Source of the DNA: a virus
Taxonomy: Duplodnaviria; Heunggongvirae; Uroviricota; Caudoviricetes
Length of the DNA stretch: 36,963 bases
Direction: 5' to 3' (one strand)
Virus record (IMG/VR): IMGVR_UViG_2563366920_000001
Shown piece by piece: positions 10,964 through 18,428 of this stretch. The notes under the pieces are model-generated. The model did no database searches. It saw only the letters and a list, made by a program, of their open reading frames with translations, and was not told where the DNA came from. A program made the translations under genes and the position numbers. Each line of letters begins with the position of its first letter. The stretch's first letter is position 1.

Positions 10964-11059
10964 GGTGACCGTGAGAGCACTACTGACCCCTGAAATAGCC
11001 CCGCGTATGGGGATCGTATTGTTCAGACCAGGTTCAGAGCTGATGCCCCTGTTTATGCC

Positions 11060-12608
11060 TGTCTCTTGATCAGATCTCCTGATCAAGAGACTTCATCACC
11101 AGGTAACCCTCAACCATATCCTGAAGTCTGAACCAGCCATCCCACATGACTACCCAACCGGGGCGACCTGTGCGTTTGCTGTCATGCCATCGCCCCAGTT
11201 TCGCCAGTTTCAGACAGGCCCATTTCAGTGTCGGCATCTGTGACGGAAGCGGTTTTCCTTCCAGCTTAACCCACAGCAGTTTCCACTCTGTCGGCGTCAG
11301 TATTTTCTCACAGCTGTCATTTTGTGTTTCTTCACTGATACCGCCCTGCCGCAGGCCCAGCACCCGCACCGCGATAAACGCCTTGATAACCACCATGCGC
11401 TCGAGGTTATCCCGGGTCTGCATTCGCAGCGATTCCACACATGTACCACCACTTTTCCACGCCTTGTGGTATTCCTCTATCAGCCAGCGTCGCTCGTAAT
11501 GGCTGACGATACGTCGCGCATCGGCGGCACTCGCCACTTTTTCTGACGTCAGCAGATGCCAGCAGGCGCCGTCCTCTGCCTGCTCCCGGCAACAGACATA
11601 CGTGAGCGGGAGCGCCTGGCCGCTGTTGTCGGGATTTTTTATGCTGACTTCGCTGTAACTGATGAACATCCGGGCCTGGCGGGCTGCCCGCCCGCCTTTT
11701 TGCATCACATTTAGCGTGTGGCTTCCCGCGGTTGCTAGGACTTCCGGCAGTTCGAAGAGCTTGCCGGGTGCTTCTTCCAGCCGGCGATTCTGTGCTGCAC
11801 GCACCACGAAGCGCTGCCCGTGGCTGACTTTATAATGCAGGTAATGCCAGATATCCGCTTCCCGGTCACAGACAGTGATTACCCGTTTCTGTATCTCCCC
11901 CAGCCGTTCGGCCATGCGCTCCGAAGCCTGCTGCCAGCGGTAACTTTCTTTTTCTTCATAGGGACGTTCTTTTCGCTGGTGCTTAACACCGTAGGTGTCC
12001 GTGGCACGACTCCAGCGCTGCTGTTCGATAAGACCGACTGGCAGGGCGCTGTCGGGGGCGTACATCAGGACAGAGTGAGCCAGCAGCCCGCGCGTCTTCG
12101 GGTTAGTGGTGGTATTCCCCAGGTCATCAGATGCCGTACTGTGACTGAAGTTAATGGTGGTGGTGTCTTCCAGCGCGAGGAGCAGCGGATGAGCCTCACA
12201 TGCCCTTACAGTGGCGGTAAATCCGGCTTCGGCAATGGCTTGCGGGGACACAGACGGGTTACGTATCAGGCGGTACGCACCTTCAACCTGAGCAGTGGAC
12301 TGGGATGATTTCACAATAGAAAGACCTGCATGCTGAGCGAGAGAAGAGGCCAGTGACACAAGGCGTCGTGTACGACGCGGATCACCGAGACGGGCATGTC
12401 CAAACTGCTCGTTAGCCCATGAATAACAATCAGAAAGTACCATAACAGACCCGAAGAAAATGAAATATAAGAGAAGATCAACGGGTGAGGAAAAAGTTCA
12501 AAAAATCGCTGCCGGGGAGGAAGGAAACTACCGGATGGAAAGAGTCCCCCTAAAGCAGACTGACAGACATCACAAATCCCCGGGTGGGGATTTGTGTATA
12601 AGAGACAG
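11060..12608 (-). mobile_element. IS4-family (IS50-like) insertion sequence, about 1549 bp, with target-site duplication
   Basis: Left terminus CTGTCTCTTGATCAGATCT (11060-11078) is identical to the IS50 inside end as I recall it. Right terminus, reverse-complemented, is CTGTCTCTTATACACAAAT (ending 12608), outside-end-like. Flanking direct repeat GTTTATGC at 11052-11059 and 12609-12616. Confidence 0.8.
11070..12443 (-). CDS. tnp: Transposase (IS50/Tn5 Tnp family, 457 aa)
   Basis: ATG at 12443. Conserved blocks GDPRRTRRL, VCDREADI, RWLIEEYHKAWKSG and DSKRTG align with Tn5 transposase. ORF ends inside the inside-end-like terminus as in IS50. Confidence 0.85.
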   Translation of the reverse strand: MVLSDCYSWANEQFGHARLGDPRRTRRLVSLASSLAQHAGLSIVKSSQSTAQVEGAYRLIRNPSVSPQAIAEAGFTATVRACEAHPLLLALEDTTTINFSHSTASDDLGNTTTNPKTRGLLAHSVLMYAPDSALPVGLIEQQRWSRATDTYGVKHQRKERPYEEKESYRWQQASERMAERLGEIQKRVITVCDREADIWHYLHYKVSHGQRFVVRAAQNRRLEEAPGKLFELPEVLATAGSHTLNVMQKGGRAARQARMFISYSEVSIKNPDNSGQALPLTYVCCREQAEDGACWHLLTSEKVASAADARRIVSHYERRWLIEEYHKAWKSGGTCVESLRMQTRDNLERMVVIKAFIAVRVLGLRQGGISEETQNDSCEKILTPTEWKLLWVKLEGKPLPSQMPTLKWACLKLAKLGRWHDSKRTGRPGWVVMWDGWFRLQDMVEGYLVMKSLDQEI

Positions 12609-13535
12609 GTTTATGCAGGGGCGTGTACTGCTGGAGCCTGAGCCGGAACGTTATTCATCTTTCGCCAGTGGTGCCGTTCCCGCGGCATCACAACCGCTGG
12701 CGGATGATCCTGCTGTTCGGGCCGTGTTCCGCAATGAGGCAGTGATCCGTCGTGCTGGTGGCGTGGAATGTCTTGAAAGCTGGTTACTTCGTGAAAAAGG
12801 CTGCCAGTGGCCTCATTCCGACTGGCACAGCGAGAACATGACCACAATGCGACACGCTCCGGGCGCAATCCGTCTGTGCTGGCACTGTGATAACCAGCTG
12901 CGCGATCAGTTCACGGAACGGCTGGAATCAATGGCAACGGATAACTGTGCCCGCTGGGTGTTGTCTGTTGTGCGTCGGGATCTCGGTTTTGATGATAGTC
13001 ACGTTGTGACAATGCCGGAACTGTGCTGGTGGCTGATTCGTAATGACCTGGCGGATGCCTTACCGGAAAGTGCAGCCCGTAAGGCACTGAGATTACCAAA
13101 GCCTGTTGTGCCGTCTGTCACCCGGGAAAGTGACCTTGTGCCTTCGGTTCCTGCCACCAGCATCATCCAGGATAAGGCAAAAAAGGTGCTGGCGCTGAAA
13201 GTGGATCCGGAGTCGCCGGAGTCTTTTATGTTACGCCCAAAACGTCGCCGCTGGGTTAATGAAAAGTACACGCGCTGGGTTAAGACACAGCCGTGTGCAT
13301 GTTGTGGAAAGCCCGCTGATGATCCCCACCACCTGATAGGCCACGGTCAGGGGGGAATGGGTACAAAAGCGCATGACCTCTTTGTGTTGCCTTTGTGCAG
13401 AAAGCATCACGACGAGCTGCATGCGGATACCGTGGCATTTGAAGAGAAGTATGGCTCCCAGCTGGAGCTGATATTTCGTTTTATCGATCGCGCGCTGGCA
13501 ATTGGCGTGCTGGCCTGATTTTGTGGAGAAAGTTG

Positions 13536-13913
13536 ATGCGTGATATTCAGATGGTTCTGGATCGTTGGGGGGCATGGGCGGCGAGTGATAGTTCTGGGGT
13601 AGACTATTCGCCTATAGCTGCTGGGTTTAAAGGGCTTCTTCCCTATACAAGCAAAACACGTCAGGCTTGTTCAGATAGTGATGCATTAATTATTGAAGGT
13701 TGTCTTGCTCGTCTAAAGCAAAAAAGACCTGAAGAACACTCGCTTCTTGTTGCCCATTACCTATACGGTATCTCTAAAAGAAAGCTCGCCAAGGCTCGTA
13801 AAAAGGATGAGAAACTAATACGCATTGAGATACAGATGGCTGAGGGGTTTATTGATGGCTGCCTATCGATGTTGGAAATTAGTCTAGAGATGGACCCCGA
13901 AGTTAAAGATTGA
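13536..13913 (+). CDS. Late antiterminator Q (phage 82 / QuuD-type)
   Basis: ATG at 13536 with GGAG 7 nt upstream (ORF track starts at TTG 13521). N-terminus MRDIQMVLDRWGAWAASD...IAAGFKGL matches Q proteins of 82-like lambdoid prophages as I recall them. Confidence 0.75.
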   Translation: MRDIQMVLDRWGAWAASDSSGVDYSPIAAGFKGLLPYTSKTRQACSDSDALIIEGCLARLKQKRPEEHSLLVAHYLYGISKRKLAKARKKDEKLIRIEIQMAEGFIDGCLSMLEISLEMDPEVKD

Positions 13914-13920
13914 TTATTGA

Positions 13921-13945
13921 AGCCCGATTACTCGGGCTTTTGTTC
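13921..13945. terminator. Hairpin terminator between the convergent Q and moron genes
   Basis: AGCCCGA-TTAC-TCGGGCT stem-loop (13921-13939) followed by TTTTGTT on the plus strand. The stop codon of the minus-strand 339-aa gene lies in the loop. Confidence 0.5.
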
Positions 13946-14947
13946 CACATCTCGAACATAGAGAATTACTGCTGACTTAATGTCACCATCGACGTGTTTT
14001 GCGTTAATGCTCAAATGTACAGGCTTTCTTTCCCACTCAGCTCGCTGCAATGCTTCTTTGTTTCCGGATTCATCAAGGAAAACATCCTGAACTACGCAGG
14101 TTAGACGTTGGTCGGTATCTACGCGTCGGACCTTAACTTTGAAACTCTCTGGGTCAGTATTATTGACTTCTTCAATTCGGTAAATACCATCAATCCTCAT
14201 TTCTGATGAACGTCTACGAGCATTCGTAACCAACTCTTTCGCCATTTCAGAATCAATAGTAACGCCATCAATTTGAGCGTTATCTGAACGCACAAAGGAT
14301 TTGACCATTTGGGTTTTAGCGTCATACGACATACGGTCCATGTTATCGAGAAGTGGTTTTTCCGCAATCATTTCTGAAATAACCCGCAGGCGTTTAGTTT
14401 CTTGCTCGCTCATGATCTGCATAGTCCGGAGATGTTCTTTCTCTCCATCCTTAGCAATTTCTGCAAGGCGAATATCTTTGCGGTTGTCCAAGAACCGTTT
14501 AAATACTGTTACTCCGCCCCAGATGACTGCTGCGCCGAGAACAGTAAACATGATCTCAGTTGCGTTCATTTTACCAACAAGTTCCTGTGTGAGTTTGGTT
14601 AAAAAGCCATCAATGTTGATTTCTACTATTGAAGAACCCTGTTCTACCGTAACTTCTATTTCTAGGGCATCAAGTTCTTCTTTGGTCAGTTTGCGGACGT
14701 CAGGGACACCGTACTTGGCAAGGGCATATGATTTGTTGATTTGAGCTTGCATTTCAACAAATCCCTTCATAACTGAAGGTGTTAGCGATCTGTTGAATTT
14801 TTCACCGGTTAATCTGATGGTAAGGTTTGGCCATCCGTTGAAACTTAAACTGTCAGGTAAACCATAACCATCAAGATAGCTTTCAAGCAAATCGAAGGCT
14901 TGCTGCTCAGATTCAATGTCTACATGAATCTCATCAAACTTATCCAA
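13928..14947 (-). CDS. Hypothetical membrane protein (339 aa, one predicted TM helix); moron gene of unknown function
   Basis: Long opposite-strand ORF in a markedly AT-rich segment. TTG start at 14947 with GAGGA 7 nt upstream; first in-frame ATG is 59 codons downstream. Hydrophobic stretch IMFTVLGAAVIWGGVTVF mid-protein. No family recognised. Confidence 0.6.
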   Translation of the reverse strand: MDKFDEIHVDIESEQQAFDLLESYLDGYGLPDSLSFNGWPNLTIRLTGEKFNRSLTPSVMKGFVEMQAQINKSYALAKYGVPDVRKLTKEELDALEIEVTVEQGSSIVEINIDGFLTKLTQELVGKMNATEIMFTVLGAAVIWGGVTVFKRFLDNRKDIRLAEIAKDGEKEHLRTMQIMSEQETKRLRVISEMIAEKPLLDNMDRMSYDAKTQMVKSFVRSDNAQIDGVTIDSEMAKELVTNARRRSSEMRIDGIYRIEEVNNTDPESFKVKVRRVDTDQRLTCVVQDVFLDESGNKEALQRAEWERKPVHLSINAKHVDGDIKSAVILYVRDVEQKPE

Positions 14948-15122
14948 AAGTATGTCCTCATTCTAAGCCAACTGTCACCGTGAGGTTTGGCAACGCCTGC
15001 TTTATTTTTCGTTTTAAGTTGTGTGGCAAAAAAATAATGGAAAAACAGATAAAAATCACTAACGCGGTCCGCATTTTCTAGATTACTGTGTTAAGAGTGG
15101 TTACTTCGCCACACAGCTTAAA

Positions 15123-15145
15123 CCCGCCGCTGAGCGGTTTTTTTG
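15123..15145 (+). terminator. Candidate intrinsic terminator (possibly tR' of the late leader)
   Basis: Short GC hairpin CCGC-TGA-GCGG followed by seven T residues, in the intergenic region upstream of the late-region genes. Confidence 0.35.
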
Positions 15146-15266
15146 TACCTGTAAACTTGGTGCAGTACAGTAAACACGCTGGTGGTCGTGAATACTGACT
15201 TTTTATCTTGCTGGCTTTTTAGACAAGAGTTATTGGTATGTCATGTTAACCAGAAGGGAAAAAGAC

Positions 15267-15470
15267 ATGCTAAAACAGCAAGATATGACAGAAACCGCCG
15301 CCGTAGTCCTTCATTTCTTACCTGCTGACAAGTGGGTAACGCCACGCATGATGACGAGAACTACCGGAGTAAGCGAAGCCCGGTGCCAGTTAATACTGAC
15401 TCAGTTAGTTCTGGCGGGTCTGGCGAAGGATAACGGCGGGTATGGGAATAAATTCAGACGCTGCCAGTAA
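15267..15470 (+). CDS. Small winged-helix protein (PapI/FaeA-like suspected, about 67 aa)
   Basis: ATG at 15267 with GGGAA upstream (alternative ATG at 15243). Segment AAVVLHFLPADKWVTPRMMTRTTGVSEARCQLILTQLVLAGLAKDNGG resembles PapI/FaeA-type wHTH regulators (recollection). Confidence 0.4.
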   Translation: MLKQQDMTETAAVVLHFLPADKWVTPRMMTRTTGVSEARCQLILTQLVLAGLAKDNGGYGNKFRRCQ

Positions 15471-15620
15471 TGGCGGTTTCCTGCTGTGAAAATGGGCGGC
15501 TGGTGGGTGTTGGTAGCACCTGCCAGCCATTCGCTCATGCTTACTGGTCACAAGCGAACCACGGCCCACTGCTTTAGCGCAAAAGCAGAGTGAGCCTACC
15601 AGAGTTACGCTTACTGATCC

Positions 15621-16673
15621 ATGAAAAATACTGTAAAAATAAACAGTGTTGATTTAATCAACGCTGATTGCCTGCATTTTATTCAGTCCCTGCCTGATGA
15701 TTCCATTGACCTGATTGTTACCGATCCGCCTTACTTCAAGGTGAAACCTAACGGTTGGGACAATCAGTGGAAAGGGGACGAAGATTACCTTAAGTGGCTG
15801 GACCACTGTCTGGCCCAGTTCTGGCGGGTGTTGAAACCTGCCGGAAGCCTTTACCTGTTCTGTGGGCATCGCCTGGCATCTGATATTGAGATCATGATGC
15901 GTGAACGTTTCAACGTGCTTAACCATATCATCTGGGCGAAGCCGTCCGGACGTTGGAATGGGTGTAATAAAGAAAGTCTGCGCGCATATTTTCCTGCCAC
16001 AGAGCGCGTTCTGTTTGCTGAACATTACCAGGGGCCATATCGCGGCAAAAGTGACGGCTATGCGGCAAAAGAAAGGGAACTCAAACAGCACATAATGGCA
16101 CCGCTGATATCGTATTTCAGGGATGCTCGTGCCGAACTGGGTATAACGGCAAAACAAATTGCCGAAGCCACAGGTAAGAAAAATATGGTTTCCCACTGGT
16201 TTGGTGCCAGTCAGTGGCAGTTGCCGAATGAGGCTGACTATCGGAAGTTACAGGCACTGTTTTCCCGTATAGCGGCAGAGAAGTTTCAGGAACAACAACT
16301 GGAACAACCACACCACCAGCTGGTGGCATCTTATGATTCACTGAATCGCAAATATTCTGAATTGCTGGATGAGTTTAAATCTCTCCGGCGCTATTTCTCC
16401 GTATCAGTCTCCGTGCCTTATACCGATGTCTGGACGCATAAGCCCGTTCAGTTCTACCCGGGTAAACATCCGTGCGAGAAACCGGCGGATATGCTCCGGC
16501 AAATAATCAATGCCAGTAGTCGACCTGGTGATCTGGTTGCTGATTTCTTTATGGGATCCGGTTCCACAATAAAAGCAGCAATGGCGCTGGGGCGTCGGGC
16601 GTTAGGTGTTGAACTTGAGTCAGAGCGGTTTAATCAGACGGTGAAAGAGGTAAGTGAACTGGTGGGGAAATAA
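15621..16673 (+). CDS. DNA methyltransferase, N4/N6 family (beta-class, 350 aa)
   Basis: ATG at 15621. Motif IV DPPY near the N-terminus (DLIVTDPPYFK) and AdoMet motif I near the C-terminus (DLVADFFMGSGSTIKAA), the beta-class order. Confidence 0.85.
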   Translation: MKNTVKINSVDLINADCLHFIQSLPDDSIDLIVTDPPYFKVKPNGWDNQWKGDEDYLKWLDHCLAQFWRVLKPAGSLYLFCGHRLASDIEIMMRERFNVLNHIIWAKPSGRWNGCNKESLRAYFPATERVLFAEHYQGPYRGKSDGYAAKERELKQHIMAPLISYFRDARAELGITAKQIAEATGKKNMVSHWFGASQWQLPNEADYRKLQALFSRIAAEKFQEQQLEQPHHQLVASYDSLNRKYSELLDEFKSLRRYFSVSVSVPYTDVWTHKPVQFYPGKHPCEKPADMLRQIINASSRPGDLVADFFMGSGSTIKAAMALGRRALGVELESERFNQTVKEVSELVGK

Positions 16674-18122: not shown

Positions 18123-18428
18123 TTATTCGTAGTTGTCACCAGGGAAGTATTCCTGAAACTTTGATTTTGGGAGCTGGGTTTTCGCGAAGTTCGCAAGCCT
18201 TCCTCTTGTAAGCATGTAGTCACACCCACCTTCTTGTTTGAGAAGGTCACCAGCTAATGTCCGATACACAACGTCACTTCGCAAAATTTCAATGGTGGAA
18301 TTCCTGATGAGAAATGTTTCACACATCGGGCATCTAATTAACCAAGCGGTATCACGGTTCTGCCAGGTCGCATCTGAATTGCAAGCCGGGCAGCATTTCT
18401 GATCTTCTTGTCCTATGACCATTGTCAT
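18123..18428 (-). CDS. Hypothetical zinc-ribbon protein (101 aa), opposite-strand moron in the bor position
   Basis: ATG at 18428-18426. Two Cys pairs (CCPAC...CPMC) about 20 residues apart. Protein-like composition. Not similar to lambda Bor as I recall it. Confidence 0.5.
   Translation of the reverse strand: MTMVIGQEDQKCCPACNSDATWQNRDTAWLIRCPMCETFLIRNSTIEILRSDVVYRTLAGDLLKQEGGCDYMLTRGRLANFAKTQLPKSKFQEYFPGDNYE

Follow-up and report, generated by a model that had tools for sequence, protein, structure and literature searches.

The stretch of viral DNA analyzed here (IMG/VR virus record IMGVR_UViG_2563366920_000001, Caudoviricetes; 36,963 nucleotides, all of it referred to below as the window) carries a 339-aa gene between its antiterminator Q gene and its late genes, on the opposite strand to the phage genes on either side. 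This cargo gene, a member of the protein family phrog_6191, is real, conserved and mobile, and by its behavior and composition it is a moron: a self-contained, mobile single-gene cassette of temperate phages. From its position and architecture alone we infer an anti-phage or lysogenic-conversion role. Our leading explanation, to which we give about half of the total weight, is that the product is a lysogen-expressed, probably membrane-tethered, single-gene anti-phage factor that would act by exclusion or abortive infection.

The cargo gene and its signals

A preliminary reading made from the letters of the DNA (the sequence-only reading) had singled the gene out as an AT-rich segment running against all flanking phage genes, and this description was borne out. 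The neighboring DUF968/HNH, Q (PF06530), 75-aa phrog_331, N6/N4 DNA methylase, lambda S-type holin and lysozyme genes are all on the plus strand, and the GC content is 41.8% for positions 13914-15242 and 42.1% for the open reading frame (ORF), as opposed to 52.5% for the window. The Q gene is likewise AT-rich (44% GC). The cargo gene and the features at its 3' end are as follows.

13928..14947, minus strand: 339-aa cargo gene, from the ORF list; TTG start; phrog_6191 member
13919-13940, both strands: hairpin GAAGCCCGA-TTAC-TCGGGCTTT, common to the 3' ends of Q and the cargo gene
13521..13913, plus strand: antiterminator Q gene of the PF06530 type (Pfam PF06530, E = 1.1e-52; phrog_79), convergent with the cargo gene

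Two signals reported in the sequence-only reading, a Shine-Dalgarno sequence before a TTG start and a stop codon embedded in a hairpin shared with the end of Q, were both found. The former is a GAGGA at 14955-14959 (minus strand), separated by a 7-nt spacer from the TTG at 14947-14945. The stop codon TAA (13930-13928) lies inside the four-base GUAA loop of the hairpin at 13919-13940, which begins six bases past the Q stop codon (13911-13913) and whose left arm encodes the C-terminal K-P-E that is conserved in the homologue alignment. The folding energy of this hairpin is -13.8 kcal/mol on the plus strand and -13.6 kcal/mol on the minus strand (z-scores of -4.0 and -4.3 relative to shuffled sequences), an energy matched by at most 1 of 200 shuffles. 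The sequence UUUGUU follows the hairpin directly on the plus strand, while no U-run follows it on the minus strand.

Upstream of the cargo gene, a sigma-70 promoter scan returned six promoter-like sites, compared with 4.0 ± 2.1 in shuffled sequences, and none of the six is well placed; from the two best candidates, which were rejected, transcription would begin within or past the Shine-Dalgarno sequence. A cross-genus alignment of the same region contains conserved AT-rich sequence with no clear hexamers. Rfam and tRNA scans of the window gave no match in the cargo region. With respect to Q, the RefSeq start is a few codons later than 13521, and in avian pathogenic E. coli (APEC) O78 the gene is annotated as encoding an "antiterminator Q family protein".

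The phrog_6191 family

The sequence-only reading recognized no family for the cargo protein, and in this respect it has to be corrected: the protein matches phrog_6191 over its full length (E = 1.6e-152, 508.5 bits, residues 3-337 on profile positions 2-337 of 338). PHROGs annotates this family as function unknown. There is no above-threshold match in Pfam, NCBIfam or PADLOC, and two sub-threshold matches were dropped, one to FNIII-A_GpJ (18.6 bits versus a cut-off of 27) and one to MetS, which covers the hydrophobic helix only. A search of 5.8 billion proteins identified 101 homologues (26-100% identity; the full-length ones mostly 327-348 aa long) from Escherichia, Salmonella, Klebsiella, Enterobacter, Serratia, Pantoea, Yersinia, Morganella, Providencia, Xenorhabdus, Pseudomonas, Acinetobacter and Burkholderiales. 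Any that bear a name in their source are called "hypothetical protein". A profile search of 1.84 billion cluster representatives (50% identity) recovered at least 1,510 clusters at E ≤ 0.001, 586 of them at E ≤ 1e-30; the best 150 of the 1,510 are nearly all full-length, with proteins of approximately 320-370 aa. Beyond its entry in PHROGs, with function unknown, the family is not catalogued, and no source names it.

Between orthologues at 50-85% identity, pN is 0.08-0.33 while pS is saturated (≥ 0.75), and pN and pS are given here in place of dN/dS because of this saturation. Low pN alongside saturated synonymous sites means that purifying selection on the cargo gene is strong. Of 5,426 complete E. 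coli genomes, 87 (approximately 1.6%) carry it intact at ≥ 99%, always with a hypothetical annotation; carriers of the exact gene include avian pathogenic, uropathogenic and extended-spectrum beta-lactamase isolates. Two shortened copies on E. coli chromosomes, P0023 (280 aa) and P0027 (274 aa), have 100% identity in the part that aligns, with starts at M60 and M66, respectively. Either gene callers avoided the TTG start or these are true 5' disruptions.

A TTG start is used in five enterobacterial genera and in Moraxella, and a GTG start in Pseudomonas. In the copies that sit next to Q in Enterobacter, Serratia and Pantoea, the TTG start, a GAGG Shine-Dalgarno sequence and the stop codon in the hairpin loop are all kept, as is the TAA followed by TCGGGCT. 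The gene is intact, under purifying selection and without a match to any structural or lysis family; the disruption, lack of conservation or structural or lysis match that the sequence-only reading had named as counter-evidence was therefore not found.

Genomic contexts of the family

All of the contexts retrieved for the family are temperate phages, and the slot differs among them. In Escherichia (the window and APEC O78), Enterobacter, Serratia and Pantoea, whose proteins share 68-100% identity, the gene and a PF06530-type Q are arranged tail-to-tail, and the lysis or late genes run divergently from it. In Salmonella Typhi, Morganella, Moraxella phage Mcat17 and E. coli phage ϕ458 it directly follows a cI-type repressor gene on the same strand; the Salmonella Typhi repressor-side copy is present on 345 contigs, and Orf11 of ϕ458 is a distant full-length family member (hhalign probability 98.2%). 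Acinetobacter copies are found in a repressor-side cargo tract with one or two genes between. Prophages of P. aeruginosa carry the gene between tail genes I and J, immediately upstream of J, and in one such case a T4 Imm-type superinfection immunity gene is one gene (I) away. The family gene is also upstream of the late genes in a Mu-like prophage and beside gpD and a BrnT/BrnA pair in a P2-like prophage, and further members occur in Burkholderiales and in a compost metagenome.

The GC content of the family gene is below that of its locus in 13 of 13 loci (46% versus 60-61% in P. aeruginosa), and most of the loci read have a terminator-like hairpin after the gene (Salmonella, Pseudomonas, Acinetobacter, Morganella and ϕ458). 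It has no constant neighbor and is a single gene in enterobacteria. Movement between cargo slots, deviant GC content and a terminator hairpin of its own make this gene a moron by definition. The sequence-only reading had called it a self-contained moron, which agrees with its own Shine-Dalgarno sequence, start codon and hairpin, its deviant composition and its exchange as a cassette.

The idea of a general partner gene was rejected, as one candidate, a 100-aa ORF (phrog_15679), precedes the family gene in Acinetobacter-type copies only. In the Acinetobacter tracts (L013, 5308-9193; L016, 6550-9700) this ORF always precedes the family member, and it could be a lineage-specific partner there. 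An HSDR_N nuclease-like protein of 390 aa is encoded ahead of it in L013. A GGDEF-domain protein is encoded downstream of the family gene, directly after it in L013 and one gene further in L016.

The cargo slot and a putative Q target

Pairwise blastn comparisons with E. coli loci that carry the same Q type delimit the exchanged segment. These loci have the same downstream genes and another minus-strand cargo in the slot. Homology to them ends at 13894 (L019) or 13864 (L020) and, in L019, resumes at 15051. Loci with a different, 250-aa Q have either no cargo or a plus-strand gene. The features of the slot are as follows.

~13895-15050: exchangeable cargo cassette, comprising the last Q codons, the hairpin, the 339-aa gene and approximately 100 bp upstream; GC 41.7%
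14948..15050, minus strand: upstream region specific to the cassette, where the gene's own promoter is presumed to lie; not in other-cargo loci and moderately conserved among Q-slot copies
15051..15108, plus strand: conserved 58-bp block AAAAATCACTAACGCGGTCCGCA...TGTGTTAAGAGTGGTTAC, which accompanies PF06530-type Q whatever the cargo
15126..15145, plus strand: terminator-like hairpin GCCGCTGAGCGGT followed by TTTTTTT (terminator scan); inferred tR'
15243..15470, plus strand: first gene of the late-strand operon, 75 aa (phrog_331, E = 1.9e-26)
L019 843-2242, minus strand: alternative cargo, DUF6731 gene (phrog_7651) and 147-aa gene
L020 2204-3199, minus strand: alternative cargo, SDH-type ClpP-like serine protease gene (phrog_11747)
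L021 887-1285, minus strand: alternative cargo, 132-aa gene (phrog_3152)

These comparisons identify the interval from PF06530-type Q to the conserved block as a cargo-exchange slot. All of the alternative cargos are uncharacterized, three of them belonging to PHROGs of unknown function. The 75-aa phrog_331 gene is present whatever the cargo (its protein, WP_000917724, is identical in L001, L019, L021 and L022) and so is not a partner of the cargo gene.

The sequence-only reading had assigned the whole intergenic region (14948-15242) to the cargo gene. This holds for 14948-15050, but 15051-15145 tracks the Q type and ends in a terminator; given the blastn boundaries, of these 295 bp just approximately 100 are part of the cassette. 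The 58-bp block contains TGTGTTAAGAGTGG and the palindrome GCGGTCCGC and is conserved over four genera, from Escherichia to Pantoea. E. coli loci that have this Q type (L001, L019, L020 and L021) contain its core, TTAAGAGTGG, as does Enterobacter, and Serratia and Pantoea have close TTATCAC-type variants of it. Loci of the other Q type (L022 and L023) lack the core, and homology to them starts only at 15121, by the terminator-like hairpin. Enterobacter and Serratia have an equivalent of the terminator-like hairpin in the same place with other stem sequences. A canonical -10/-35 pair is not obvious in 15051-15108. Because the block co-varies with Q type, 15051-15145 is probably the late promoter, Q-binding region and tR' of the PF06530-type Q.

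Shiga toxin genes are located downstream of pR'/tR' on the late strand and are Q-dependent. The sequence-only reading had likened the position of the cargo gene to theirs, and both do lie in the broad Q-to-lysis interval. The likeness goes no further than that, as the cassette is upstream of the putative pR'/Q-binding block and in the opposite orientation to the late strand on which the toxin genes lie. With this arrangement, the cassette comes between Q and its putative target, and Q-dependent late transcription would never cross it.

Protein architecture

An AlphaFold2 model built on a 45-sequence alignment is confident (pLDDT 82.8, pTM 0.67). Across the family the architecture is the same: an acidic N-domain, then a hydrophobic helix that is short and marginal, a helical region and an OB fold at the C-terminus. 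In the cargo protein these parts are encoded as follows.

14573..14947, minus strand: N-terminal domain, residues 1-125; acidic alpha/beta, no known fold
14501..14557, minus strand: hydrophobic helix EIMFTVLGAAVIWGGVTVF, residues 131-149; putative single membrane anchor
14213..14500, minus strand: helical region, residues 150-245; opens with the basic stretch KRFLDNRKDIR
13931..14212, minus strand: C-terminal OB-fold domain, residues 246-339; mildly acidic

Six of the eight residues that are invariant in the family (G48, T56, Q67, L87, G104 and S105) are in the N-domain. The helical region and its approach are modelled as helices at 146-163, 167-174, 181-196 and 198-218, followed by a small beta hairpin and a further helix. 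The closest structural match of the OB domain is the periplasmic metal-binding protein SilF, and the next are sugar-binding toxin B subunits. Searching the family profile against PDB chain sequences gave only noise (E ≥ 0.14), and Foldseek against viral structures gave only uncharacterized proteins with low TM-scores. No catalytic motif is apparent in the protein. Its sequence contains no signal peptide or lipobox, and on these grounds both a secreted role resembling that of toxin B subunits and a lipoprotein (Cor-type) role were rejected.

The central transmembrane helix proposed in the sequence-only reading survives in part. Residues 131-149 are the sole hydrophobic segment (Kyte-Doolittle average 1.77 over 19 aa), and most of the 45 homologues have their hydrophobic peak at a similar place in the alignment. 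The segment is nevertheless short (16-18 residues), glycine-rich and kinked in the model at G144-G145, and its insertion energy is marginal: a crude Hessa sum is +0.4 kcal/mol (17 aa) for the cargo protein, below 0 in 11 of the 45 homologues and below 2 in 36 of them. For these reasons, membrane anchoring of the cargo protein is regarded as likely and not as certain. Five lysine and arginine residues flank the helix on its C-terminal side and two on its N-terminal side, such that the positive-inside rule predicts a cytoplasmic helical and OB half and an exported N-domain.

A proposed lysogen-expressed anti-phage factor

An accessory role exercised in the lysogen against other phages is favored because the family is found in temperate phages only, hops between slots, occupies the repressor operon in many lineages, often has weak start codons and combines a hydrophobic anchor with two conserved soluble domains. 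Weak starts (TTG, GTG) are common in the family, which fits low, tolerated expression. If the cargo protein is an anti-phage factor, it would be synthesized at a low level in the lysogen and directed against superinfecting phages. The short central helix would tether it to the inner membrane with its two conserved soluble domains, one of which would recognize a component of the incoming phage. The outcome would be superinfection exclusion, with the entry of the genome blocked, or else an abortive infection linked to the membrane, as with the OB-fold proteins AbiP and PdpSau; the data do not separate these two possibilities. Being convergent with Q and upstream of the Q target, the cassette would be kept outside the late transcript, while head-on early transcription through Q after induction would silence the cargo gene when its own prophage grows. 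Such an off-switch is plausible given the precedent of taiEcA, an opposite-strand defense gene of ϕ80, expression of which drops when Q is expressed (PMC11364771). A more specific version of this model, which we advance tentatively and consider unlikely in its full form, is a new, very widespread one-protein defense that works by signalling across the inner membrane: the exported N-domain would sense the ejection machinery of the incoming phage in the periplasm, the cytoplasmic helical and OB half would block the genome or trigger membrane failure, and placement convergent with Q or behind cI would silence the gene on induction.

Several known systems resemble the cargo gene in part, the nearest working analogues being the abortive-infection proteins AbiP and PdpSau and membrane exclusion proteins such as SieA, HK97 gp15 and Imm. 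AbiP of Lactococcus and PdpSau of S. aureus prophages are, like the cargo protein with its putative anchor, single-gene products that combine one hydrophobic anchor helix with an OB fold, and the gene for PdpSau, itself accessory to its prophage, is linked to the lysis genes, in a slot that otherwise carries the toxin PVL (PMC10127798). Compared by description, they differ in having an N-terminal anchor and a basic C-terminal part, whereas the cargo protein has a central helix that is marginal as an anchor, an acidic OB domain and, ahead of the helix, a conserved acidic domain of 125 residues. The hosts of AbiP and PdpSau are Gram-positive and those of the phrog_6191 family Gram-negative. BstA is a cytoplasmic defense protein with a KilA-N-like N-terminal domain and no hydrophobic helix. 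In prophage BTP1 and its relatives it is a single-gene defense with its own terminator directly downstream of cI, in a slot that shares the promoter of the repressor (PMC8585504); this is the position held by phrog_6191 in Salmonella, Morganella, Moraxella and ϕ458. The cargo protein matches no PADLOC defense-family model and no Pfam domain.

Phage- or prophage-encoded, membrane-associated proteins made in the lysogen provide a second group for comparison: RexA and RexB of lambda, SieA and SieB of P22, gp15 of HK97 and Imm of T4. The positions of rexAB after cI and of HK97 gp15 as a moron within the tail genes are akin to phrog_6191 slots. Known exclusion proteins are, however, small or multi-spanning (HK97 gp15 has 62 aa), while the cargo protein has two large soluble domains. 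Tai/Ati of ϕ80 shares with the cargo gene an orientation opposite to the phage operon; TaiEcA has 204 aa and is encoded after the lysis genes, and no overlapping counter-defense gene was seen at the cargo locus.

A number of observations weigh against an anti-phage role of this kind. Neither the promoter scan nor the cross-genus alignment located a promoter upstream of the cargo gene, and the Mu-like copies are co-oriented with the adjacent late-region genes, which fits lysogen-only expression less well. The hydrophobic helix is only marginal for membrane insertion, and a cytoplasmic C-terminal half requires a 125-residue N-domain to be exported without a signal peptide. With an isoelectric point of 5.4 (family median 5.7), the OB domain is acidic, unlike typical nucleic acid-binding OB folds and unlike the basic C-terminus reported for PdpSau. 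Comparisons with named systems were also negative: the hhalign probability of the cargo profile is 0.10% with RexA and 0.13% with RexB, and that of the cargo protein with TaiEcA (ϕ80 orf63) is 0.2%, while tblastn of a phage collection gave no match in ϕ80. No PADLOC-DB 2.0 family was matched at E ≤ 1, no PHROG with an assigned function at E ≤ 0.1 and no Imm_superinfect domain in Pfam. As none of the alternative cargos matches PADLOC either, guilt by association through the slot is weak. Six protein and family identifiers were absent from the literature searched, as was DUF6731.

Alternative explanations

The cargo protein could instead be a lysogenic-conversion factor unrelated to defense, membrane-tethered and altering envelope physiology, stress tolerance or host interaction in the manner of Bor, Lom and Iss. 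We regard this as unlikely, if worth serious attention: moron positions and a self-contained appearance suit such a factor, the APEC O78 prophage has iss in another opposite-strand slot, and the OB domain best resembles periplasmic SilF and then toxin B subunits. Two cargo tracts, however, contain phage-related neighbors (the Imm-type immunity gene and the HSDR_N nuclease-like gene), the protein has no signal peptide or lipobox, and the occurrence of the family in bacteria from soil, plants, water and the clinic (Pantoea, Serratia, Acinetobacter, Burkholderiales and a compost metagenome) disfavors a niche-specific virulence role. Proximity to the master regulators raises a different explanation, in which the protein, tethered to the membrane, would modulate the lysis-lysogeny decision, induction, replication or lysis timing of its own phage, comparable to the secondary roles proposed for RexB. 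In most lambdoid contexts the gene adjoins cI or Q, and its linkage to PF06530-type Q holds from 100% to 68% protein identity in four genera; moreover, a cargo transcript passing the hairpin would be antisense to Q, and lambda uses the antisense promoter paQ within Q comparably. Yet the gene is dispensable, with the same Q and the same late genes occurring with other cargo or none, and it is also found between tail genes and in Mu-like and P2-like phages with unrelated regulatory circuits. Both soluble domains are conserved, which would be needless if antisense transcription alone mattered, and we consider a life-cycle role distinctly unlikely.

The remaining explanations concern the helix and the C-terminal domain. 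A soluble cytoplasmic protein with its hydrophobic helix buried in an oligomer core, whether or not it serves in defense, would overlap with the other explanations; the 16-18-residue, glycine-rich, marginal segment, the break of the modelled helix at G144-G145, the fairly high whole-chain pTM of 0.67, the lack of a signal peptide and the acidity of both flanking domains, as in cytoplasmic proteins, all point in this direction. We find it quite improbable, as the position of the hydrophobic peak is kept in most of the 45 homologues with a basic cluster after it and the crude insertion energy is negative in 11 of them. Interference with virion assembly, in which the C-terminal beta domain would mimic a domain of tip protein J and poison tail assembly of competitors as Tai and Tab do (PMC11364771, PMC10884400), is suggested by the location of the P. 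aeruginosa copy immediately upstream of J and by a below-threshold match in Pfam between residues 247-291 and the FNIII-A domain of that tip attachment protein (E = 0.0022). That match is under the gathering score, no single stretch passes it, and there is no similarity to TaiEcA at the hhalign probability given above, so that we give this explanation very little credence. A lysis or structural role was rejected because of the opposite orientation of the gene to the late operon, its dispensability between collinear phages and the lack of any such family match.

Other features of the prophage

An insertion sequence of the IS4/Tn5 type, at 10970-12520 of the window, separates a KilA-N gene from the DUF968 gene. 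It encodes a 457-aa transposase (ORF 11070-12443, minus strand) with Tnp_DNA_bind, DDE_Tnp_1 and Dimer_Tnp_Tn5 domains, and a repeat search did not find the ends of the element. The insertion, which APEC O78 does not have, gives the DUF968 ORF a spurious N-terminal extension. Its place in the early rightward operon, ahead of Q, means that it may prevent Q from being expressed and leave the prophage defective.

A second opposite-strand ORF (18123-18428, minus strand, 101 aa) is found between Rz and the HNH/terminase genes. It encodes a zinc-ribbon-like protein with two CxxC pairs, has no Pfam or PHROG match and may be another moron; the slot just after the lysis genes holds an opposite-strand iss in APEC O78 and in another E. 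coli prophage. A threonine tRNA gene (CGT, 1369-1444) adjoins a minus-strand 387-aa ORF (1459-2622) in integrase position, which places the left prophage end, and a probable attachment site, here. On the late strand (15243-16673), the 75-aa phrog_331 gene is followed by a gene for a 350-aa N6/N4 DNA methyltransferase before the holin gene. At the start of the late strand and ahead of holin, this methylase is placed for Q control.

Implications

The kind of element described here is already familiar: it is a prophage moron, probably defensive, and uncharacterized prophage cargo is common. What is distinctive is an N-domain without a known fold and an architecture unlike that of every named exclusion or Abi protein compared. 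The breadth of the family, its movement between slots and its clean single-gene design make it a good experimental target, and the slot could be mined for further candidates, since all four alternative cargos are uncharacterized. As approximately 1.6% of complete E. coli genomes carry the exact gene, an effect on the host range of phages used in therapy is possible. If the anti-phage explanation is true, a large family, with one domain of no known fold, would be added to the prophage-encoded anti-phage repertoire, spanning lambdoid, Mu-like and P2-like prophages of Enterobacterales, Pseudomonas, Acinetobacter, Moraxella and Burkholderiales.

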